A stretch of DNA of 64,000 nt from Thermoanaerobaculia bacterium (GTDB lineage: Bacteria; Acidobacteriota; Thermoanaerobaculia; Multivoradales; JAGPDF01). The DNA is taken from positions 21,074-85,073 of the forward strand of contig DASWJT010000008.1 in NCBI GenBank assembly GCA_036397015.1. Reading direction: 5' to 3'. Position 1 is the stretch's first letter, and each line of letters begins with the position of its first letter. The notes under the pieces were generated by a model. That model saw nothing but the letters and a program-made list of their open reading frames with translations. It made no database searches and was not told the origin of the DNA. This document shows positions 4,867-47,019 of this stretch, in pieces. The position numbers and the translations under genes were made by a program.

Positions 4867-6438
4867 TCAGTCGTCGCCGCTCGCGGCGAGCGCGAGACGG
4901 TTGCGACCGCTCTGCTTGGCGAGATAGAGCGCGGCGTCGGCGGCGCGAACCAGCCCCTCGGCGCCGTCGTCGCGGGTGGGGACGGCGGCGGCGGCGCCGA
5001 AGCTCGCGGTGACGACCGGGGCGACGGGCGAGGCCGGATGCGGGATCGCGAGGTGCAGGATCTCGCCGCGCAGCGCCTCGACGAACGAACGCGCCGTCTC
5101 GAGGTCGGCGTCGTGGAGGAGAACGGCGAACTCCTCGCCGCCGAAGCGCGCGGCGAGGTCTCCGGCGCGTTTCACCTTGCCCGCCAGCAGCGCGCCGAAG
5201 CGTTGCAGGCAGGCGTCTCCGGCGGGGTGGCCGAGGCTGTCGTTGTACGCCTTGAAGCAATCGACGTCGAGGAGCACGAGCGCGAGCGATCGGCTGGCAC
5301 GCAGCTGCCGGCGCCACTCGAGCGCGAGCGCGGCGTCGAAGCGGCGGCGGTTGGCGATACCGGTAAGCGCGTCGACGAGGGAGAGCCGCTCGAGCTCGGC
5401 GTTGGCCGTGGAGAGCAGGCGCGTCGCCTCGCTCAAGCGGCGGTTGAGGAGCGCCAGGCGGATCGCTCCGGCGACCTGCGCCGCGACCAGCGCCACCAGC
5501 TCGCGCAGCTCGGCGGTGAAGACGCCGGCGCGGTCGCTCTCGACGTTGATGGCGCCGAGGGCGCGGCCCTCGAAGACGATCGGCGCCACCAGCTCGCAGA
5601 CGACGCGGTCGTCGACGGCGAAGTAGTCGGGATCGGCGGCGACGTCGAGCACCAGCTGCTCGCTCCCGCTGCGGATGGCGCGGCCGACGACGCCGCGGTC
5701 CACCGGCCAGCGCTCCGGCGTCTGCAGCGCCGCCGGCTCGCGCAGCGCGAAAGCGCGGTGGCTCCACTCGCGGTGACCCTCGTCGGCGACGACGATGGCG
5801 ACGAGGTGGAAGTCGAGACGGTCGCGCAGGAAGGAAGCGATGCGCGCCAGCGCGCGGTCGAGGTCTTGCGCCTCGAGCGCGGCGCGGGTGACGGCGGCGA
5901 GAGTGTCGAGAATGGCGGCGCGGCGGCCGACCTCCTCGAGGTGGCGGGCGCTCGCCACCGGCCCGGCGAGTTGACCGGCGATCGCCTCGACCAGGGGCAA
6001 TGCGCCGCGGAAGGCGGCGGGGCGCGGGCTCTCGAGGTTGAGCACGGCGAGCACTTCGCCGCGATGACGGATCGGCGCGCAGAGCTCGGAGCTGATACCG
6101 CCGCGGGTGTCGACGAAGTCGGCGAAGGTCGTGACGTCGTCGATCACCACCGGCTCGCCGCTCGCCGCCACGCGGCCGACGACGCCACTGCCGAAGGGGC
6201 GGCTGTAGCCGGGGTGCACGTCGGTCTCCACCCGGCTGGTACACGCCTCGCAGACGAAGCGCCGCGCGGCGGCATCGACGCGCACCAGTGCGACGAGCTC
6301 CCAGCCGAGCTCCTCGACGAGCGCGTCGGTGACGCGCTGCATCATCGGCCGTAGCTCGAGGTCCTCGGTCGCCAGTCGCGCCAGGCGCGCCAGCAGCTCG
6401 AGCTCCCGGGCGCGTGCCCGCCGTCCGCGGGTCGTCAT
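4867..6438 (-). CDS. GAF-domain diguanylate cyclase (GGDEF)
   Basis: This lies within ORF 4867..6687. The ATG at 6438 (MTTRGRRARARELELLARLA...) precedes two GAF-like segments and a C-terminal GGDEF domain (DALTGIANRRRFD...RFGGEEFAVLL...YLAKQSGRNR). Confidence 0.85.
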   Translation of the reverse strand: MTTRGRRARARELELLARLARLATEDLELRPMMQRVTDALVEELGWELVALVRVDAAARRFVCEACTSRVETDVHPGYSRPFGSGVVGRVAASGEPVVIDDVTTFADFVDTRGGISSELCAPIRHRGEVLAVLNLESPRPAAFRGALPLVEAIAGQLAGPVASARHLEEVGRRAAILDTLAAVTRAALEAQDLDRALARIASFLRDRLDFHLVAIVVADEGHREWSHRAFALREPAALQTPERWPVDRGVVGRAIRSGSEQLVLDVAADPDYFAVDDRVVCELVAPIVFEGRALGAINVESDRAGVFTAELRELVALVAAQVAGAIRLALLNRRLSEATRLLSTANAELERLSLVDALTGIANRRRFDAALALEWRRQLRASRSLALVLLDVDCFKAYNDSLGHPAGDACLQRFGALLAGKVKRAGDLAARFGGEEFAVLLHDADLETARSFVEALRGEILHLAIPHPASPVAPVVTASFGAAAAVPTRDDGAEGLVRAADAALYLAKQSGRNRLALAASGDD

Positions 6439-13945: not shown

Positions 13946-14389
13946 ATGATTCCTCGCCCCCTGGTCCGTGGCTCGCTGGCGCTCGCTCTCGGGCTTTCGA
14001 GCGTTTCGCGCGCATCCGCACAGGATCCGTGCCTCCTGACGTTGACCGAGGCGCGCGAGCTGGGCGGGAGCGAGATCACGCAGGCGGCCGGCGACGGCCG
14101 GCGCTGCAGCTACGTTGTCAAGGGCGGCGAGACGCGCATCGCGATCGACGTCGGCGGAGTCGACTCTCCCGCCGCCCAGACGCGGCTGGAAGAGCTCGGC
14201 GACGCCTCGCGCTACGACTCGCGCCAGAAGGGGAAGGTCACTTACTGGCTGTCGCGCGCCGACGAGCTCGCCGGCTGGGTGCGGCGCGGCGAGCGCCTGG
14301 CGGAGGTGCGTTCCGACGGCGAGGCGAGCGCCAAGCGCCGGCGCCTGCTCGAGCACGCCTTGCAGCGCGTGGGCGAGCGGCTGCGCTGA
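13946..14389 (+). CDS. Small secreted hypothetical protein
   Basis: The 147-aa ORF has a signal peptide (MIPRPLVRGSLALALGLSSVSRASAQ). A purine-rich stretch (gagagagagg) precedes the ATG. I recognise no family. Confidence 0.5.
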   Translation: MIPRPLVRGSLALALGLSSVSRASAQDPCLLTLTEARELGGSEITQAAGDGRRCSYVVKGGETRIAIDVGGVDSPAAQTRLEELGDASRYDSRQKGKVTYWLSRADELAGWVRRGERLAEVRSDGEASAKRRRLLEHALQRVGERLR

Positions 14390-14492
14390 AGACGGTGCGG
14401 TAGGCTTCGCGCCGAGCTCGCCACGCGTCGCGCGCCGCTCCGGGGGGCGCCGCAGACGGGTCTCGGCGCGCGCTCGGTCGGGGGTTTGGAAA

Positions 14493-15776
14493 GTGGCGAA
14501 AGGCAAGAGATTCCAGGCTCCGAAGGGCACCCGCGACCTGCTGCCGCCGGCGACCGGCGTCTGGGCGCGGGTGGAGGAGACAGCGCGGCGAGTGTTTGCT
14601 CTCTATGGCTACGGCGAGATCCGCACCCCGCTCTTCGAAGAGACCGAGCTCTTCGCCCGCGGCGTCGGCGAGACGACCGACATCGTCGGCAAGGAGATGT
14701 ACAGCTTCCTCGACAAGGGCGGACGCCAGCTCACGCTGCGCCCGGAGTCGACCGCCGCCGTCTGCCGTGCCTACGTCGAGCACGGAATGCAGTCGCTGCC
14801 GCAGCCGGTGCGCCTCTTCTACGTCGGCCCGCACTTCCGCTACGAGCGGCCGCAGAAGGGGCGCTACCGCCAGTTCCACCAGATCGGCGCCGAGCTCGTC
14901 GGCGGCAGGGGCGCCGAATCCGACGTCGAGATTCTCCTCCTCCTCGTCCGCTTCCTGCGCGAGCTCGGTTTCACCGGCCTGAAGATCCTCCTCAATACGG
15001 TGGGGGATGTCGCCTCGCGTACCGCCTACCGAGAGGCGCTCCGGGAGTACCTACTTCCATTGAGGGAAAGACTCTCGGAGGACAGCCGGCGGCGACTGGA
15101 GACGAATCCGCTGCGCATTCTCGACACCAAGAGTGCGGAGGAGCAGGAGCTGCTCCGCGGCGCGCCGACGCTCGAATCGTCGCTGACCTCCGTCGCCGCC
15201 GACCATTTCCGCCGAGTCCTCTCTTCAATGGAAGCTTTTCGTCTTTCGTATTCCGTCGAACCTCGACTCGTGCGCGGGCTGGACTACTACACGAACACGG
15301 TGTTCGAGATCGTGTCGGAGGGCCTCGGGGCGCAGAACGCTGTCTGTGGCGGAGGTGCTTACGAAAGCATGGTCGAGGAGCTCGGCGGCCCACCCACCTA
15401 CGGCGTCGGCTTCGCCATCGGCGAGGACCGGCTGATCGAGGTGCTGCCCGCCGATTCTCCGGCGCGGCGAAAGAGTCCGGGACCTGTGCTCGTGACGGCC
15501 GTAGGAAAGGCTTCCATAGAAGGGGGCGAGGGGCTCGAGCTCGTCGGTCTGCTCGAGGAGCTGCGCGCCGCGGGAGTTCCCTGCCGTGAGGCCGGCAGCC
15601 GCGGCGCGAAACTCTTCGACCTCGCCGAAGCTCTCGACGCGCCGGCGGTGGTCTTTCTCGGCGAGGACGAGCTCGGTTCCGGGTCGCTTTCGCTCCGCAT
15701 CGTCGCTTCCCGCGAACAGTCCACGCTGCCGCGCGGCGAGGCGATCGCGCGCCTCGCGGAGCTGTTTCGCACGTGA
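14493..15776 (+). CDS. hisS: Histidine--tRNA ligase
   Basis: An in-frame GTG at 14493 in ORF 14115..15776 gives VAKGKRFQAPKGTRDLLP...EMYSF...LTLRPESTA...FRYERPQKGRYRQFHQ...RLVRGLDYY...GGGAYE. These are class IIa motifs 1-3. Confidence 0.93.
   Translation: MAKGKRFQAPKGTRDLLPPATGVWARVEETARRVFALYGYGEIRTPLFEETELFARGVGETTDIVGKEMYSFLDKGGRQLTLRPESTAAVCRAYVEHGMQSLPQPVRLFYVGPHFRYERPQKGRYRQFHQIGAELVGGRGAESDVEILLLLVRFLRELGFTGLKILLNTVGDVASRTAYREALREYLLPLRERLSEDSRRRLETNPLRILDTKSAEEQELLRGAPTLESSLTSVAADHFRRVLSSMEAFRLSYSVEPRLVRGLDYYTNTVFEIVSEGLGAQNAVCGGGAYESMVEELGGPPTYGVGFAIGEDRLIEVLPADSPARRKSPGPVLVTAVGKASIEGGEGLELVGLLEELRAAGVPCREAGSRGAKLFDLAEALDAPAVVFLGEDELGSGSLSLRIVASREQSTLPRGEAIARLAELFRT
15054..15074 (+). 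repeat. aaRS-associated AT-rich motif, copy D (forward), inside hisS
   Basis: The sequence is cttccattgagggaaagactc. It matches the reverse complement of copy A at 17 of 21 positions, with the first 10 identical. Confidence 0.75.
15214..15255 (-). repeat. aaRS-associated AT-rich motif, copy A (reverse), inside hisS
   Basis: The sequence is gagtcctctcttcaatggaagcttttcgtctttcgtattccg. The segment 15233-15247 is the exact reverse complement of lysS 32459-32473 (gaaagacgaaaagct). Confidence 0.8.
15506..15525 (+). repeat. aaRS-associated AT-rich motif, copy E (forward), inside hisS 3' region
   Basis: The sequence is aaaggcttccatagaagggg. It matches the reverse complement of copy B at 19 of 20 positions. 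Confidence 0.8.
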
Positions 15777-15808
15777 GCCTTTTCGGGCGCGAGCGCGAGC
15801 CAGACCTA

Positions 15809-15850
15809 CCCCTTCTATGAAAGCCTTTGTCTTTGTCTTGAATGTGAATT
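15809..15850 (-). repeat. aaRS-associated AT-rich motif, copy B (reverse), hisS-aspS intergenic
   Basis: The sequence is ccccttctatgaaagcctttgtctttgtcttgaatgtgaatt. It is the most AT-rich stretch of the 98-nt spacer, lying 33 nt after the hisS stop. Confidence 0.8.
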
Positions 15851-15874
15851 CTCCGGATTCTTCGAGGTGAAGCG

Positions 15875-17620
15875 ATGAAGCGGCGCGGTGCGGGGACGTT
15901 GTCGGCGGAGGAGGTCGGAACGACGATCCTCCTCCAGGCCTGGGTGCAGCGGCGGCGGGACCTGGGAGGGATGGTGTTCCTCGACCTGCGCGACCGCAGC
16001 GGGGTCTGCCAGGTGGTGGTGCGCCCCGCGGCGAGCCCGGAGGTCGCCGCCGCGCTCGCGCCGGTGCGCTCCGAGTGGGTGGTCGAGATCGAGGGGGAGG
16101 TCGCGCGCCGCGAGGCGGTGAATCCGCACCTCCCGACCGGAGAGATCGAAGTGATCGCGCGTCGGGCTGCGGTCCTCTCGCCGAGCGAGCCGCTGCCGTT
16201 CGGGCTCGACGAGCACACCGAGGCGTTCGAGGACCTGCGCCTGAAGCACCGTTACCTCGACCTGCGCCGCCCCGAGCTGCAGCGCAACCTGATGCTGCGC
16301 CACCGCATCGCGCAGGAGACGCGGGCCTACTTCGACGCGCACGGCTTCCTCGAGATCGAGACGCCGATCCTCACCAGGTCGACGCCCGAGGGGGCGCGCG
16401 ATTATCTCGTCCCCTCGCGCGTCCACCGCGGCGAGTTCTACGCCCTGCCGCAGTCGCCGCAGCTGTTCAAGCAGCTCTGCATGGTGGCCGGCTTCGAGCG
16501 CTACCTGCAGATCGCGCGCTGCTTCCGCGACGAGGACCTGCGCGCCGACCGCCAGCCGGAGTTCACGCAGGTCGACCTCGAGCTGTCGTTTCCCACCGAG
16601 GAGGAGATCTTCGCCCTGCTCGAGGGGCTCTTCGTGCGTCTCATGCGGCTCGTCGGCGTCGAGCTCGCGGCGCCGTTCCCCCGCCTCACGTACGCCGAGG
16701 CGATGGCGAGCTTCGGCACCGACCGGCCCGACCTTCGCTTCGGGCTCGAGATTCACGATGTCACTCGCGAGGTGGCAGACAGTTCGTTTCAAGTTTTTTC
16801 AAAGACTTCCATTGAAGGGGGAGTGGTACGAGCGATCGTGGTTCCCGCCGGCGCCTCGGCGACGCGATCGCGGGTGGATGCGTGGAGCGAAGTCGCGAAG
16901 CGGCACGGCTTGCCGGGCCTGCTGACGCTCAAGCGTGTCAACGGGGCGCTTACGTTTCAGGTCAAGAGCGTGCACGCCGACGAGCTCGAGCCGATCGCCG
17001 CGGCGCTCGAGCTCCTCGACGGGGACCTGGCGTTGCTCGCGGCGGGTTCTACGGCCGTGGTGGCGCCGGCGCTCGGGGCGCTGCGTCTCGAGCTCGGGCG
17101 GCAGCTCGAGCTGGTGCCGGCGGGGGAGTGGAAGTACCTCTGGGTGACCGAGTTCCCGCTGCTCGAGTGGCACGCTGAGGACGGGCGCTGGTACTCGATG
17201 CACCACCCCTTCACCAGCCCCGACCCCCGCGACCTCGACCGCCTCGACAGCGACCCAGGTTCGGTGCGCGCCCGCGCCTACGACCTCGTGCTCAACGGCA
17301 CCGAGCTCGGCGGAGGATCGATCCGCATCCACGACGGCCGCGTGCAGTCGCGCGTCCTCGAGCGGCTCGGCATCGGCGCCGAGGAGGCGCGGACGCGCTT
17401 CGGTTTCCTGCTCGAAGCCCTGAAGTACGGCGCCCCGCCGCATGGCGGAGTCGCTCTCGGCCTCGACCGCATCGCCATGCTGCTCGCCGGCGCCTCGTCG
17501 CTGCGCGAGGTGATCGCCTTCCCCAAGACCGCGTCGGCCACCGACCTGATGACCGACGCGCCGTCGGCGGTCGACGACGCCCAGCTCGCCGAGCTCGGCA
17601 TCGCGCTGCGCCAGCGCTAG
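15875..17620 (+). CDS. aspS: Aspartate--tRNA ligase (bacterial type with GAD insertion)
   Basis: The 581-aa ORF reads ...GWVQRRRDLGGMVFLDLRDRSG...FRDEDLRADRQPEFTQVD...GGSIRIH...PPHGGVALGLDR. Confidence 0.95.
   Translation: MKRRGAGTLSAEEVGTTILLQAWVQRRRDLGGMVFLDLRDRSGVCQVVVRPAASPEVAAALAPVRSEWVVEIEGEVARREAVNPHLPTGEIEVIARRAAVLSPSEPLPFGLDEHTEAFEDLRLKHRYLDLRRPELQRNLMLRHRIAQETRAYFDAHGFLEIETPILTRSTPEGARDYLVPSRVHRGEFYALPQSPQLFKQLCMVAGFERYLQIARCFRDEDLRADRQPEFTQVDLELSFPTEEEIFALLEGLFVRLMRLVGVELAAPFPRLTYAEAMASFGTDRPDLRFGLEIHDVTREVADSSFQVFSKTSIEGGVVRAIVVPAGASATRSRVDAWSEVAKRHGLPGLLTLKRVNGALTFQVKSVHADELEPIAAALELLDGDLALLAAGSTAVVAPALGALRLELGRQLELVPAGEWKYLWVTEFPLLEWHAEDGRWYSMHHPFTSPDPRDLDRLDSDPGSVRARAYDLVLNGTELGGGSIRIHDGRVQSRVLERLGIGAEEARTRFGFLLEALKYGAPPHGGVALGLDRIAMLLAGASSLREVIAFPKTASATDLMTDAPSAVDDAQLAELGIALRQR
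16778..16823 (+). repeat. aaRS-associated AT-rich motif, copy F (forward), inside aspS
   Basis: The sequence is acagttcgtttcaagttttttcaaagacttccattgaagggggag. The core is cttccattgaagggg. The upstream arm resembles the reverse complement of lysS copy C (acagtt...tttcaa...cttccat). Confidence 0.75.
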
Positions 17621-17663
17621 ACGGCGCGCCGTGCCGGCGCGGGCGCCTCGGCATTGGCCAGCG

Positions 17664-17684
17664 CTCCATTCTGTGGAAGTCTCC
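17664..17684 (-). repeat. aaRS-associated motif, copy H (reverse, more diverged), aspS-aroB intergenic
   Basis: The sequence is ctccattctgtggaagtctcc. Its reverse complement ggagacttccacagaatggag matches copy F at 15 of 19 positions, with agacttcca identical. Confidence 0.55.
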
Positions 17685-17689
17685 GCGCG

Positions 17690-18799
17690 ATGATGCACCG
17701 CGTCGAGTCGTTCGACCTCGCTCACGCGGGCGGGACGACCCGTCTGCTCTACGGCGAGAGCGCGATCGCCGAGGGCGCGCGGGAGCTCGCCGCACGGCTC
17801 GGCGGCCGGGCGCTCTTCGTCGTCTCGGCGCCGCCGATCCGCGAGCTGCACGAGGCGGCGGTCGCGCCGCTCGTCGCGGTCGCGGGCTCGGCGGTCTGGC
17901 TCGACGTGGCCGACGGCGAGGCCGCGAAGTCGGTGGGCGAGGCGGAGCGACTGTGGATGGCGCTCGTCGCCGCCGGCTGCCGGCGCGACGACTGCGTCGT
18001 CGGCTTCGGCGGCGGTTCGGTGACCGACGTCGCCGGTTTCGTCGCCGGCACGATCCTGCGCGGTGTCGACTGGGTCGCCGTGCCGACGACGCTTCTCGCC
18101 CAGGTCGACGCGGCGATCGGCGGCAAGACGGCGATCGACCTGCCAGCGGCGAAGAACGCCGTCGGCGTCTTCCACCACCCGCTGGCGGTGCTCGCCGAAC
18201 CGGGCGTGCTCGCCACCCTCGACGGCGCCCAGCGCCGGCACGGCCTGGTCGAGTCGATCAAGACCGCCGCCATGCTCGACCTCGCTCTCTTCGAGCGCAT
18301 CGAGCGGCGCCTCGACCGGGTGCTGGCGGGCGATGCCGAGACGAGGGCGGCGGTCGTCGTGGCGACCGCGCGCGCCAAGGCACGCCTGGTCGAGCGCGAT
18401 CCGCGCGAGGCTGGCGCGCGCCAGCTGCTCAACTTCGGCCATACGCTCGGCCATGCCCTCGAGGCGGAAGTCGGCTACGGCCGCCTCGCCCACGGCGACG
18501 CGGTGGCGCACGGTATGCGTTTCGCCCTCGCGCTGTCGCGCGCCGCCGGCTGCGACGAAGCGTTCGCGGCGCGCGTCGAAGCCGTGCTCGACCGGCTCGC
18601 CGTGCCGCCGCTGCCGCCGCTCGCGCCGGCGGCGCTCCTCGCCGGGCTCGAGCGCGACAAGAAGGCGCGCACCGCAGGCCTCGGCTGGGTGCTGCTGGCC
18701 GCTCCGGGAGAGGGCCGCTACGGCGTGCGGCTCGCCCCCGAAGCGGTCGCCGCCGCCCTGTCGAGCTTTTTCCGGCGAACGGGCGGCGGACCCCTATAA
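17690..18799 (+). CDS. aroB: 3-dehydroquinate synthase
   Basis: This lies within ORF 17654..18799. ATG at 17690 (MMHRVESF...) fits the N-terminus of AroB homologues as I recall them. It contains GGGSVTDVAGFVAGTILRGVDWVAVPTTLLAQVDAAIGGKTAID. Confidence 0.9.
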   Translation: MMHRVESFDLAHAGGTTRLLYGESAIAEGARELAARLGGRALFVVSAPPIRELHEAAVAPLVAVAGSAVWLDVADGEAAKSVGEAERLWMALVAAGCRRDDCVVGFGGGSVTDVAGFVAGTILRGVDWVAVPTTLLAQVDAAIGGKTAIDLPAAKNAVGVFHHPLAVLAEPGVLATLDGAQRRHGLVESIKTAAMLDLALFERIERRLDRVLAGDAETRAAVVVATARAKARLVERDPREAGARQLLNFGHTLGHALEAEVGYGRLAHGDAVAHGMRFALALSRAAGCDEAFAARVEAVLDRLAVPPLPPLAPAALLAGLERDKKARTAGLGWVLLAAPGEGRYGVRLAPEAVAAALSSFFRRTGGGPL

Positions 18800-20627: not shown

Positions 20628-20999
20628 ATGCCCTATCAATACATCCTGGCCAATCTACTGGCGCGCAACCCCGGCGCGGTGGGCGTGCTCTTCGTCGACG
20701 ACAGCGGCGAGACCGTCGACCTCGCCTGCGCCGACTTCACGCCCTTCCAACTGCGCGTCGTGGGCGCCTACGTCGGCATCTACCTCCGCCAGATGCAGGC
20801 TTTCTTGGGCGAGGGCGGGCACGGCGACGCGCGCTGGCTGCACATCCACAAGGATCGCCTGCACATCTACGTGGCGCCGCTCCCCGACGGCTACTTCCTC
20901 GTCCTCGTGCAGCGCTCGCCGGCGCTCTCGGCGGCGGCGCGGCGCAGCCTCGGGGACGCTTGCGAGCAGCTGACGCGAGAGCTCTTCGCCTCCGCCTGA
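20628..20999 (+). CDS. Roadblock/LC7 (MglB-like) domain protein
   Basis: The 123-aa ORF reads MPYQYILANLLARNPGAVGVLFVDDSGETVD...HIYVAPLPDGYFLVLV. This matches the Roadblock/LC7 pattern as I recall it. Its stop overlaps the ftsY ATG (ATGA). Confidence 0.7.
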   Translation: MPYQYILANLLARNPGAVGVLFVDDSGETVDLACADFTPFQLRVVGAYVGIYLRQMQAFLGEGGHGDARWLHIHKDRLHIYVAPLPDGYFLVLVQRSPALSAAARRSLGDACEQLTRELFASA

Positions 21000-31574: not shown

Positions 31575-33097
<1,523 letters not shown>

Positions 33098-34999: not shown

Positions 35000-37423
<2,424 letters not shown>

Positions 37424-37480: not shown

Positions 37481-39853
37481 ATGCGCATTCGGAAGATCTG
37501 GGCCGTCGTCGCCGTCCTCTTCCTGGCGCCGGCCGGACTGGCGGCGCAGGAGATCGTGCGCGAAATCGAGATCCGTGGCCTGCGCGCGCTGGCCGACGAG
37601 ACCCTGCGCTTCTACCTCGGGCTCGAGCAGGGCGTGGCGCTCGACGAGGCGGCGCTCGACCGCAGCATCCGCGAGCTCTGGGAGCGCCGGCTGATCGACG
37701 ACATCCAGATCGAGCGCTCGCCGGTCGCCGGGGGCATTCGGCTCGTGGTGACCGTCGTCGAGAGGCCGGTCCTGCGCTCGATCGACTACGAGGGCCTGAA
37801 GGGGATCTCGCGCACCGACCTCAACGAGCGGCTGGCCAAGGAGCAGGTCAGCGTGCGCGAGGGCGAGCCGCTCGACCTCGGCGAGATCGCGCGGCTCGAG
37901 AGCCTTCTCGAATCGATGTACCGAGACAAGGGATTCCGCTTCGCCGACGCCACCTATCGTCTCGAGGAGGTCGGACCCGGCGAGCGCCGGGTGGTCTTCC
38001 AGATCGAGGAGAACGAGAAGGTGCGGATCGGCAGGATCCGCTTCGACGGCAACGAGGTCTTCGGCGACTGGCGGCTGAAGTGGACGATGAAGAAGACCAA
38101 GGAGACCGGTCTCGTCATGCGCCTGCTCAAGAAAGACATCTATAGCCCGGCGACGATCGCCGAAGACCTGGTCAAGGTGCGAGATCTCTACCGCGGCGTC
38201 GGTTACAAGCGCGTCCAGATCGGCGAGCCGCAGCTGTCGGTGATCGAGAAGGGAAGCAGGCGGCGGCTGGGCATCGCGCTCGCGGTCGACGAAGGCGAGC
38301 GCTGGAAGTTGGGTGAGATCCGCGTCGAGGGCAACGAGTTCTTCCAGGAGAAGCCGCTGCTCGCCCAGTTCAAGCGCCCGCGCGGCGGCTGGCTGCGCGC
38401 GAAGGCGATCGAGGAGGGCGTCGACGGCGTGCGCGACCTCTACCGCAACACCGGGCACATCATGGCCGATGTGCGCAACGAGCTCGTCGAGCGCGAGAGC
38501 AACGTCGCCGATCTGCAGCTGAAGATCGAGGAGGGCGAGCAGTTCCGCGTCGGACGCCTCGAGTTCCAGGGCAACTCGCGGACGCGCGACAAGGTGCTGC
38601 GCCGCGAGTTCCGCGTCCAGGAGAGCATGCTGCTCAACATGGGCGCGGTCAAGAACAGCCTCTTCAAGATCAACCAGCTCAACTATTTCGAGCTCGACGA
38701 GGACGATCCGGTGGCCTTCGAGAACTTCGACACCGAGAACAAGACCGTCGACTTGCTCGTGCACGGCGAGGAGGCGGACCGCACGGAGCTGCAAGTCGGC
38801 GGCGGCTGGAGCGAGGCGTTCGGCTTCTTCGGCCAGGTCTCGGTGCGAACGCAGAACTTCCTCGGGCGCGGCGAGAGCGTCGGCGTCTCGGTGCAGTCGG
38901 GCCGCTACAGCGACCAGTACGACGTCTCGTACTCGATCCCGTGGTTCCTCGACCGACCGCAGTCGATCGGGCTCCAGGTGTTCGACAGCAAGGTCGACTA
39001 CACGCAGCTCTCCTCCTTCGAGAACAGCCAGGCGGCGACGGGCGCGGTGCTCACCTACGGCCGCAATCTCGGCTTCTTCCAGCAGTTCGCGGTGTCGTAC
39101 AGTTGGTTCGACCGCGAGGACCGCGTCTCGGTGCTCGGTGCCGACGGCGCCATCGTGCCGCTGACCTTCGACGTCGAGAACTCCTCGCTGCGGCCGGTCT
39201 ATTCCTTCGACAGTCGTGACAACCGCCTGGAGCCGACGGTCGGCAAGAGGTTGACGGCCTCTCTGGAGTACGCCGGCGGCCTCCTCGGCGGCAACAACTA
39301 CTTCGTGCGGCCGGAGATCGGTGCCAGCTGGTTCCGACCCGTGACCTCCGTGCCCCTGCGCTCGGTCTTCGCGGCCAACGTCAGGGCGGGATGGATCGAG
39401 CCGATCGAGGGCCGCGCGATCGTTCCCCTCGAGCGCTACTTCCTGGGGGGCGAGAGCAACATCCGCGGCTTCGACTTCCGCGACCTCACGGTGCGCTGCG
39501 AAGGCGGCGAGCCCTACCCCGGCCGGCCCCTCATACCGTGCCGGAAGGACGAGCGCCTGATCGACTCGACGGGCGCCCTGCTCGGCGGCGACCGCTTCCT
39601 GCAGCTCAACTTGGAGTACCATCTGCTCCTCGGCGGGCCGTTCCGCATCATCGGGTTCTTCGACGCCGCCAACGTCTTCGGCGCCGACCAGTCGATCGAT
39701 GTCGGTCGTCTGCGCCAGACGGCCGGTGCCGAGCTGAGGATCTTCGTGCCCGTCTTCGGTGCCCCGCTGCGCTTCATCTACGCCACCAATCTCGACCCCC
39801 TGCCGGACGACCGCTTCGAGGGCTTCCAGTTCAGCATCGGAGCGACCTTCTGA
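37481..39853 (+). CDS. bamA: Outer membrane protein assembly factor BamA
   Basis: ATG 37481 in ORF 37451..39853 gives MRIRKIWAVVAVLFLAPAGLAAQ (signal). POTRA repeats follow (IEIRGL..., IRFDGN..., IRVEGN..., LEFQGN...). The C-terminal beta-barrel ends ...FQFSIGATF. Confidence 0.93.
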   Translation: MRIRKIWAVVAVLFLAPAGLAAQEIVREIEIRGLRALADETLRFYLGLEQGVALDEAALDRSIRELWERRLIDDIQIERSPVAGGIRLVVTVVERPVLRSIDYEGLKGISRTDLNERLAKEQVSVREGEPLDLGEIARLESLLESMYRDKGFRFADATYRLEEVGPGERRVVFQIEENEKVRIGRIRFDGNEVFGDWRLKWTMKKTKETGLVMRLLKKDIYSPATIAEDLVKVRDLYRGVGYKRVQIGEPQLSVIEKGSRRRLGIALAVDEGERWKLGEIRVEGNEFFQEKPLLAQFKRPRGGWLRAKAIEEGVDGVRDLYRNTGHIMADVRNELVERESNVADLQLKIEEGEQFRVGRLEFQGNSRTRDKVLRREFRVQESMLLNMGAVKNSLFKINQLNYFELDEDDPVAFENFDTENKTVDLLVHGEEADRTELQVGGGWSEAFGFFGQVSVRTQNFLGRGESVGVSVQSGRYSDQYDVSYSIPWFLDRPQSIGLQVFDSKVDYTQLSSFENSQAATGAVLTYGRNLGFFQQFAVSYSWFDREDRVSVLGADGAIVPLTFDVENSSLRPVYSFDSRDNRLEPTVGKRLTASLEYAGGLLGGNNYFVRPEIGASWFRPVTSVPLRSVFAANVRAGWIEPIEGRAIVPLERYFLGGESNIRGFDFRDLTVRCEGGEPYPGRPLIPCRKDERLIDSTGALLGGDRFLQLNLEYHLLLGGPFRIIGFFDAANVFGADQSIDVGRLRQTAGAELRIFVPVFGAPLRFIYATNLDPLPDDRFEGFQFSIGATF

Positions 39854-46942: not shown

Positions 46943-47019
46943 GCGGCTGTAGCTCAGCTGGATAGAGCAGGAGCGTCCTAAGCTCTTGGTCGGGGGTTCG
47001 ACTCCTCCCAGCCGCACCA
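46943..47019 (+). tRNA. tRNA-Arg (anticodon CCT), CCA encoded
   Basis: I folded the cloverleaf by hand.
- Acceptor GCGGCTG/CAGCCGC
- D-arm GCTC-AGCTGGATA-GAGC
- Anticodon stem GGAGC/GCTCT with loop GTCCTAA
- T-arm GGGGG-TTCGACT-CCTCC
- Discriminator A followed by CCA. Confidence 0.9.

Follow-up and report, generated by a model that had tools for sequence, protein, structure and literature searches.

Short AT-rich patches sharing one motif lie in and beside the class II aminoacyl-tRNA synthetase (aaRS) genes hisS, aspS and lysS of a 64-kb stretch of DNA from a Thermoanaerobaculia bacterium (assembly GCA_036397015.1, contig DASWJT010000008.1), the whole of which is referred to here as the window. 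Judged from sequence, and with a probability that we put at roughly 60%, these patches belong to a lineage-specific family of short interspersed repeats of the Thermoanaerobaculia, similar to the repetitive extragenic palindromes (REPs) and bacterial interspersed mosaic elements (BIMEs), with a box that is recognised by its sequence. The family is best filed as a previously undescribed, AT-rich variant of the REP/BIME kind. The GC content of the window is 72%, and homologues of its HisRS place the host in the Thermoanaerobaculia (Acidobacteriota).

Distribution of the box among genomes

An exact-pattern scan of 185,579 species genomes, one per species and 596 Gb in all, matched at least 80 loci, and the family-wide counts of genic and intergenic copies, of flanks and of orientation given below rest on the exact-pattern matches listed. 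The pattern holds about 37 bits, from which we calculate some nine chance matches over the 596 Gb. About 68 of the matches listed fall in approximately 12 metagenome-assembled genomes (MAGs) of Thermoanaerobaculia/Acidobacteriota, with up to about 25 in a single assembly; another 12 are found in unrelated low-GC genomes, consistent with chance at the estimated level, and no viral contig in the pattern scan carried the motif. Copy number differs greatly between lineages. A profile search recovered 26 more matches away from the trigger sites in 361 kb; the density is about one per 14-30 kb in the richest genomes.

Most copies are intergenic (53 of the 75 matches listed, ~70%), as assigned with a codon-log-odds gene caller that reproduced hisS, aspS and aroB of the window exactly. 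The genes that flank them are diverse, the 91 neighbouring proteins of the matches listed spanning 127 Pfam families, and include dnaE, polA, purE, trpC, hisA/F, tilS and genes for ABC ATPases, TetR, NUDIX and Smr proteins; the sole recurrent family among them is that of the kinases. An initial annotation of the window had proposed a regulatory element specific to aaRS genes, which is not supported, as the 20-mer lies in related genomes mostly in intergenic DNA beside unrelated genes and also inside a kinase subfamily. Across the pattern scan, then, the motif occurs largely regardless of gene class.

Organisation of the repeat

The unit is an AT-rich box of about 20 bp (AAAGRCTTCCATWGAAGGGR), whose internal palindrome is just 4+4 (CTTC-N4-GAAG, or AAAG-N-CTTT in the subtype of the copy upstream of aspS, here named B). 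A typical intergenic copy consists of a tract of purine-rich hexamers, (GACAAA)n or one of its variants, followed by the box and then by AAAGAC or GC-rich hairpins. Unit and number of the hexamers vary between copies, as if by slippage, and one locus has a perfect (ACGAAG)x8 microsatellite leading into the box (L004 4781-4830; such labels denote relatives' loci, that is, orthologous hisS-aspS loci or contigs with motif matches).

Pairs of neighbouring copies less than 1 kb apart comprise 30 inverted and 7 direct ones (binomial p ~2e-4 by our estimate), with spacers mostly of 19-160 nt, so that the inverted arrangement first noticed in the window holds as a general property of the family. A convergent partner matching at 14 or more of 20 positions is present for 20 of 62 copies, against 4 of 62 with an equally good neighbour in the same orientation. 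Alternating arrays with GC-rich linkers are seen at L004 4760-5120 and L018 6400-6760, and nested inverted repeats in L009 and L014.

Some genomes contain subfamilies whose interior of 250-600 nt is conserved and includes tandem repeats, and whose far end has a degenerate copy in inverted orientation. One such element of about 600 nt has at least 13 copies in the CAWAGZ01 assembly (L004 6129-6560, L014 2800-3420 and some 11 further loci). It begins with the box, which a conserved GC-rich region follows, and contains internal, hairpin-rich tandem repeats of 85-127 nt (GGGGACACCC...GGGTGTCCCC); it gave no Rfam match. Typical copies, including the 600-nt subfamily, also occur in CAWCIP01 (L014, L021), binned as a Solirubrobacterales MAG, where the contig has probably been mis-binned into an actinobacterial genome. 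No target-site duplication or sharp element end could be recognised at the copies, and the box has no conserved GTAG head.

Copies in the synthetase genes of the window

When the window is searched with the 20-nt consensus AAAGRCTTCCATWGAAGGGG at up to three mismatches, five matches are obtained (copies A, E, B, F and lysS reverse; Table 1), and none in shuffles. A profile built solely from copies of other genomes finds exactly B, E, F, A, lysS reverse and D, with nothing else at E<10. Copies D and H match only a 12-nt core. Five of the eight lowest-GC 24-mers of the window are motif patches; the three that have no motif match lie at 20634-20657, 35000-35024 and 38663-38689, two of them in ClpB- and BamA-like genes.

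Table 1. Genes and box copies of the window, with mismatches to the 20-nt consensus (or, where stated, to its 12-nt core) and score against the external-genome profile
Feature	Position	Strand	Location and remarks	Mismatches	Profile
hisS	14493-15776				
aspS	15875-17620				
aroB	start ATG 17690				
lysS	3' end 33101		third class II synthetase gene of the window		
Copy D	15049..15077	+	inside hisS, weak	1 (core)	6.6 bits
Copy A	15214..15255 (core 15220-15239)	-	inside hisS	3	13.2 bits, E=0.004
Copy E	15506..15525	+	inside hisS, exact consensus	0	26.6 bits
Copy B	15807..15850 (core 15809-15828)	-	intergenic	1	27.0 bits
Copy F	16778..16823 (core 16801-16820)	+	inside aspS	0	23.9 bits
Copy H	17664..17684	-	intergenic, ends 5 nt before aroB ATG; degenerate, ~15/20	2 (core)	undetected
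lysS forward	32467..32492 (20-mer 32467-32486)	+	inside lysS, degenerate (AAAAGCTCTCATTCAGGGGAAAGACG); same frame as E and F		
lysS reverse	32655..32708 (core 32657-32676)	-	inside lysS, T-rich tail	3	10.1 bits

Of the six copies described initially, A, E, B and F are thus strong, and D and H are weak but homologous. The pair in lysS had been missed, and the motif is therefore not restricted to hisS and aspS as had been supposed. The strict alternation of orientation is borne out along the window (F R F R F R) and is continued by a further F R in lysS, where the forward copy lies 170 nt upstream of the reverse copy, its partner. Copy B sits 33 nt past the hisS stop and 45 nt ahead of the aspS ATG, its core being followed by GTCTTTGTCTTGAA.

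An ATG within copy B opens an upstream open reading frame (ORF) of 18 codons (window 15821-15874; MKAFVFVLNVNSPDSSR plus stop) that ends 4 nt before the aspS ATG, and in seven of eight genomes its equivalent runs open as far as the aspS start or to a point just a few bases away. It was rejected as evidence, because at 72% GC chance alone would leave 15-20 codons open in about 75% of cases and because two of the three frames terminate in AGGTGA or ATGA anyway.

Accommodation in coding sequence

That the intragenic copies are not insertions, as had been suggested for D and A by comparison with E. coli HisRS, is borne out by motif-less orthologues (e.g. L003, 81% HisRS identity), whose alignments show no gap at any of D, A, E and F and which use GC-rich codons there. 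The idea of a nucleotide-level signal accommodated by the coding sequence likewise agrees with the composition of the patches. GC at third codon positions is 32/74 (43%) in them, compared with 83-91% in hisS, aspS and lysS, and they make use of the rarest codons of the window: ATA (0.3% of Ile, with two in all genes, one of which is in copy E), AGA (0.6% of Arg), TCA (0.9% of Ser), CTT (1.6% of Leu) and CCA (2.7% of Pro).

Copy D is read as the codons CTT CCA TTG AGG GAA AGA (peptide L-P-L-R-E-R-L), copy A as S-S-M-E-A-F-R-L-S-Y, with a T-rich tail resembling the (GTCTTT)n flank of the family, and the lysS reverse copy as P-L-Y-G-S-L-L-C-F-V-F-E-K. Copy E falls in the linker ahead of the HisRS anticodon-binding domain (K-A-S-I-E-G-G), and copy F at the start of the GAD insertion domain of AspRS (F-Q-V-F-S-K-T-S-I-E-G-G). 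The earlier statement that a shared peptide cannot explain the motif holds overall, with the reservation that E, F and the lysS forward copy are all read in one common frame (K-x-S-I/F-E/R-G) and that F overlaps in part with a peptide conserved in AspRS, F-x-x-F-[SA]-K-[TA]-x-x-[ED]-G-G. D, A, B and the lysS reverse copy are read in other frames, lie antisense or do not code at all, so that what the copies have in common is the DNA sequence. The frame 0 reading of the box (AAA GAC TTC CAT, the codons of Lys, Asp, Phe and His) is taken as a coincidence, no coding copy using that frame.

Coding copies are found outside the window as well. In L041, lysS carries the same pair as in the window, an exact-pattern reverse copy at the orthologous position and a forward counterpart, AAAAGCTTTCATTTAGGGG, 193 nt from it. 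A pabC-like gene holds an exact forward/reverse pair 157 nt apart. A subfamily of Ser/Thr kinases has the box in frame (HRDLKPQN-IKASIEGK-VKVLDFG), together with a weak reverse copy 82 nt upstream; eight kinase paralogues that lay outside the pattern selection match it at 17-19 of 20 positions and invariably use the rare codons GCT and GAA, and other kinase subfamilies do not match. The coding copies in hisS, aspS, lysS, the kinase subfamily and the pabC-like gene arose by base substitution and not by insertion, with the protein tolerating them. Large Ser/Thr kinase genes (~900 aa) stand in tandem arrays, several per 8-kb locus (L015, L019, L020, L033, L046); all the arrayed kinases have the box after the HRDLKPQN catalytic loop, and K-A-S-I-E replaces the usual hydrophobic residues.

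Retention of copies in related genomes

Over a range of 67-83% HisRS identity, the variant particular to each site is retained in orthologous copies even as the sequence around them diverges, and this is clearest for copy B. Its sequence, TTTCCCTTCTATGAAAGYCTTT, is nearly identical upstream of aspS in seven genomes, namely the window, L002, L084, L023, L037, L165 and L166, with a degenerate version in L167, at a distance of 13-69 nt from the start codon. It constantly carries its own minority variant, ATGAAAG rather than ATGGAAG, in spacers that are otherwise unalignable. Copy B stays with aspS even if hisS is no longer the adjoining gene, as in L166, with a toxin-antitoxin gene in between, and in L037, with some 3 kb in between. 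The intervening gene of L166 (11355-11597) encodes an 80-aa FitA-like ribbon-helix-helix antitoxin, and the B box is still next to aspS there; in L164, an 80-aa gene and a PIN-domain toxin gene follow hisS (5219-5841), and the contig ends before aspS. The intergenic copies that precede purE, trpC and an ABC gene behave similarly, their orthologues keeping their own variants while the flanks differ.

Copies of the H type lie 5-25 nt before aroB. A strong one, CCCTTCTATGGAAGTCTT, is found at this position in L023, no counterpart is present in L001, L002 or L084, and H of the window is probably a decayed real copy. Within the coding sequences, D is conserved in at least eight relatives, as CTGCTTCCATTGARGGAAAG in L001, L002, L084, L164, L165, L166 and L167 and partly in L037 and L023, and is replaced by GC-rich codons in L003. 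A is kept in L001, L002, L164, L165 and L166 and lost in L003, L023 and L167; taken together, D and A are partly kept in L084, L037, L023 and L167. E is motif-like in the window, weakly so in L002 and L164, and not elsewhere among the relatives. F is partly kept in L001, L002, L165 and L166 and GC-rich in L003, L084 and L167, with no indel in any. The 3.8-Mb MAG represented by L003 (OY969426) has no motif at any hisS or aspS site. The hisS-aspS-aroB operon thus keeps a changing subset of sites, among which the intercistronic B and H are the most stable.

Two proteins from these loci were set aside. The 632-aa HisRS-AspRS 'fusion' P0038 (L003 10001-11899) is an out-of-frame read-through in a long-read assembly, several genes neighbouring it also being split, and the 322-aa HisRS P0025, considered as possible evidence of rearrangement, is truncated at a contig edge.

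Base pairing between inverted copies

The arms of the inverted pairs are complementary to the extent first described, with 19 of 20 positions (95%) for E and B, which are 283 nt apart, and 19 of 21 for D and A if G-U pairs are allowed. Predicted folds, both minimum free energy (MFE) and centroid, close the D:A, E:B and lysS arms (z -3.1, -3.5 and -0.9, respectively). For D:A, 16-19 of 21 pairs are kept in the window, L001, L002 and L037, compared with 7-13 in motif-less orthologues. The covariation of these arms is 0.249 against 0.168 in shuffled controls, with 63% against 58% of cells paired, from nine related sequences and with a control that overstates significance.

The partner of B is strong in the window alone (z -5.5) and moderate in L002, and no complementary partner was found within about 1 kb in L084, L023 or L037 (z ~0), where the B sequence is unchanged. 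The long-range duplexes proposed initially therefore stand in so far as the arms pair in predicted folds; that pairing is the selected feature is not supported, as B is conserved without a partner and E is not conserved. Since B persists alone and L023 combines a strong H with a degenerate F, selection would act mainly on the sequence of the box, and pairing would be at most a secondary, family-wide property.

Weighing the repeat-family reading

Several observations weigh against a plain REP/BIME-like family. All six profile matches of the window are at the three aaRS genes, which make up about 7% of it, and none is in the other 59 kb; nor was any profile match found outside hisS-aspS in the flanks of close relatives, which we sum to about 150 kb. 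If three of the 59 genes bear the motif, the probability that they are just the three synthetase genes is by our estimate about 3e-5. The local enrichment in three class II aaRS genes is real, the repeat-family reading does not account for it, and, being far above the family background, it hints at something gene-specific. Among the clustered proteins encoded beside the copies there is no transposase of the REP-associated tyrosine transposase (RAYT) or any other type, no recombinase and no trans-acting factor. The box is AT-rich in a 72% GC genome, whereas classic REPs are GC-rich, and REPs are extragenic by definition, whereas six of the eight window copies are intragenic. The arm pairs may have a role at the RNA level, given the predicted folds and the weak covariation of D:A. 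Finally, every functional statement on the repeat is drawn from sequence.

On another reading, the 20-bp box would be the address label of a lineage-specific trans-acting system, the cluster of six to eight sites in hisS-aspS-aroB and lysS being regulon-like and not repeat debris. Such a system could be a sequence-specific regulator that binds DNA or RNA, a master recombinase or a factor from the mobilisation machinery of the repeat, and the host would have written sites into class II aaRS and Ser/Thr kinase coding sequence so that control overlaps the protein code; we regard this as an unlikely account. A place of similar rank, on the improbable side, is given to long-range RNA duplexes, in which stems of about 20 bp in hisS-aspS-aroB or lysS mRNA would set processing (e.g. 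by RNase III), stability or coupling, and the pairing itself would be selected. The predicted D:A, E:B and lysS stems, the surplus of D:A pairs in motif-bearing over motif-less genomes, the covariation value, the mostly inverted neighbours across the family, and the position of B and H shortly before the start codon that follows, the ORF ahead of them having forward copies, are all in line with it. The partnerless B of L084, L023 and L037, the lack of conservation of E and the degenerate F opposite a strong H in L023 count against it. The centre of D:A is moreover mismatched in L001 without a compensating change, identical sequence in every gene is not required for pairing, the covariation control is prone to false positives with related sequences, and ribosomes would easily melt stems that enclose 139-840 nt of translated RNA. 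Doubtful, too, is a selfish mobile repeat of the miniature inverted-repeat transposable element (MITE) or REPIN type that has no host function, its non-autonomous ends or fragments being spread by a transposase encoded elsewhere and tolerated. The multi-copy subfamilies with a conserved interior and inverted ends, the nested inverted repeats, the many matches near the ends of short-read contigs and the very uneven copy number between lineages would suit such an element. It fits poorly with coding copies that leave length unchanged and hence are not insertions, with searches in which no target-site duplication, sharp end or transposase was seen at the copies, with site-specific variants held at orthologous positions while flanks diverge, and with AT-rich codons that persist despite strong GC pressure.

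The remaining explanations are far less probable. Sites of a master site-specific recombinase, with inverted pairs flanking invertible segments whose inversion would switch off or recode hisS, lysS and the kinase genes, had been raised at the outset and gain no support beyond the inverted geometry. We consider them very unlikely, even with one inverted-repeat consensus at many loci, the 30:7 bias and the intragenic invertons documented for other bacteria (10.1101/2023.03.11.532203): many spacers of 19-76 nt are too short for synapsis, the genes are single-copy and essential, one orientation is seen in all assemblies and database proteins examined (the truncated HisRS being a contig-edge artefact), no recombinase is encoded nearby, and a solo B is conserved. 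An equally poor prospect, if not a slightly poorer one, is a motif of the DNA-uptake kind, which biased uptake or some other molecular drive would accumulate by point substitution in coding and non-coding DNA alike. The copies do fit into permissive frames with no indels, whichever way they point, and often form inverted pairs, and the uptake signal sequences (USS) of Haemophilus and the DNA uptake sequences (DUS) of Neisseria are accommodated in permissive frames in the same way, at a density of about one per kb. The box is much sparser even in its richest genomes and far more so in the lineage of the window, about 70% of the copies among the matches listed are intergenic, and minority variants are kept at orthologous sites, which is the opposite of a drive to one consensus. 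Least credible of all is selection for a shared peptide, K-A/T-S-I-E-G-G/K, in proteins that include HisRS, AspRS and kinases. Almost every coding copy on the sense strand is in one frame and reads KASIEG-like (a doubtful gene call in L016 differs), but this bias is largely explained by one of the two other frames having a stop codon when W=A; most copies are intergenic, others are antisense in various frames (PFYGSL, SSMEAF), and the synonymous positions are fixed on rare codons.

How the box might act

If the repeat-family reading is right, the box would be under site-specific purifying selection and would be read by a lineage-specific factor that recognises its sequence. Such a factor would act most simply on double-stranded DNA, because the conserved copies include one that runs with transcription (D) and others that run against it (A, B and H) and because B is conserved without a partner. 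The AU-rich stems that inverted neighbours could form in a transcript would then be a secondary property of the family. B and H, which have the same orientation, would most likely modulate expression of the cistron that follows them, whether by being occupied, by affecting how the mRNA is processed or how stable it is, or by governing access to the start site, and the intragenic D, A, E and F and the lysS pair would be auxiliary sites, gained and lost at permissive positions.

Searches for known elements are in keeping with a family not described before. The region 14300-17900 has no Rfam match at the gathering threshold or at E<=5, and eight related loci gave no relevant match, just spurious miRNA-like hairpins, which upholds the initial view that the element is not a T-box: neither a T-box nor any other Rfam aaRS leader is detected in the window region or in those eight loci. 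A sigma-70 promoter scan yielded no promoter-like sites, and the one terminator-like site lies away from the motif copies. Compared by eye with the consensuses for sigma-54, extracytoplasmic function (ECF) and Bacteroidetes-type -7 promoters and for IHF, CsrA and Lrp, the box has, to our knowledge, no convincing counterpart, such a comparison not amounting to a test. A limited search of the literature on repeats in Acidobacteria found no paper describing such a family.

Relation to known repeats

The closest parallels are the REP/BIME sequences of enterobacteria and the REPINs of Pseudomonas. Like the box, these have a short unit that contains a small palindrome, are dispersed in tens to hundreds of mostly intergenic copies, are organised as singlets, inverted doublets and alternating clusters with other short motifs between them, keep their positions in related species and are confined to one lineage. 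They differ, apart from the points raised above, in that the box is flanked by a hexamer microsatellite and has neither a GTAG/CGTC head nor a RAYT gene seen beside its copies. USS and DUS resemble it as motifs substituted into coding sequence in permissive frames, in both orientations and commonly as inverted pairs; the box has a density one to two orders of magnitude lower, an intergenic bias and site-specific minority variants, and there is no evidence of competence-linked drive for it.

Rickettsia palindromic elements (RPE) and other in-gene MITEs are likewise inverted-repeat families that sit inside protein genes without destroying them. RPEs, however, are in-frame insertions that add 30-50 residues, whereas the box leaves protein length unchanged and the segments between its arms are native aaRS sequence; MITE-like inverted ends are present in some box subfamilies, but the coding copies are not insertions. 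The Correia repeat enclosed elements (CREE) of Neisseria are intergenic repeats of about 100-600 nt, co-transcribed with their neighbours and with inverted ends that fold into hairpins, and offer a model for repeats that alter mRNA processing and expression. CREE have defined 26-bp ends with a TA duplication, none of which was found here, and do not occur as substituted patches inside ORFs. Invertons (e.g. those dependent on Mpi in Bacteroides, and intragenic ones) share one inverted-repeat consensus among many loci, with some pairs in genes; the box departs from them in its often too short spacers, the lack of a recombinase nearby, the single orientation seen and the conservation of solo copies.

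For a poorly studied and uncultured class of Acidobacteriota, such a repeat family would be useful for annotation, assembly and strain typing. It would also be a case in which a repeat box has been laid over essential coding sequence purely by substitution and long held against GC pressure at the cost of the rarest codons, and constraints that overlap in this way are seldom seen and as a rule point to a real molecular interaction. With the conserved 23-mer ahead of aspS there is a simple means of seeking the factor concerned. For scans of single regions there is a caution here, in that a motif which seems specific to one class of genes within 64 kb can be a genome-wide repeat.

Other features of the window

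The GC skew of the window has no switch resembling an origin or terminus of replication. Directly upstream of hisS, the ORF at 13946-14389 may correspond to a conserved 153-aa ORF without a Pfam domain that lies in relatives upstream of the hexapeptide-repeat gene preceding hisS (L164 2806-3267, L165 4077-4538, L166 8921-9382). The sole RNA gene detected in the window is a tRNA-Arg(CCT) at 46943-47019.

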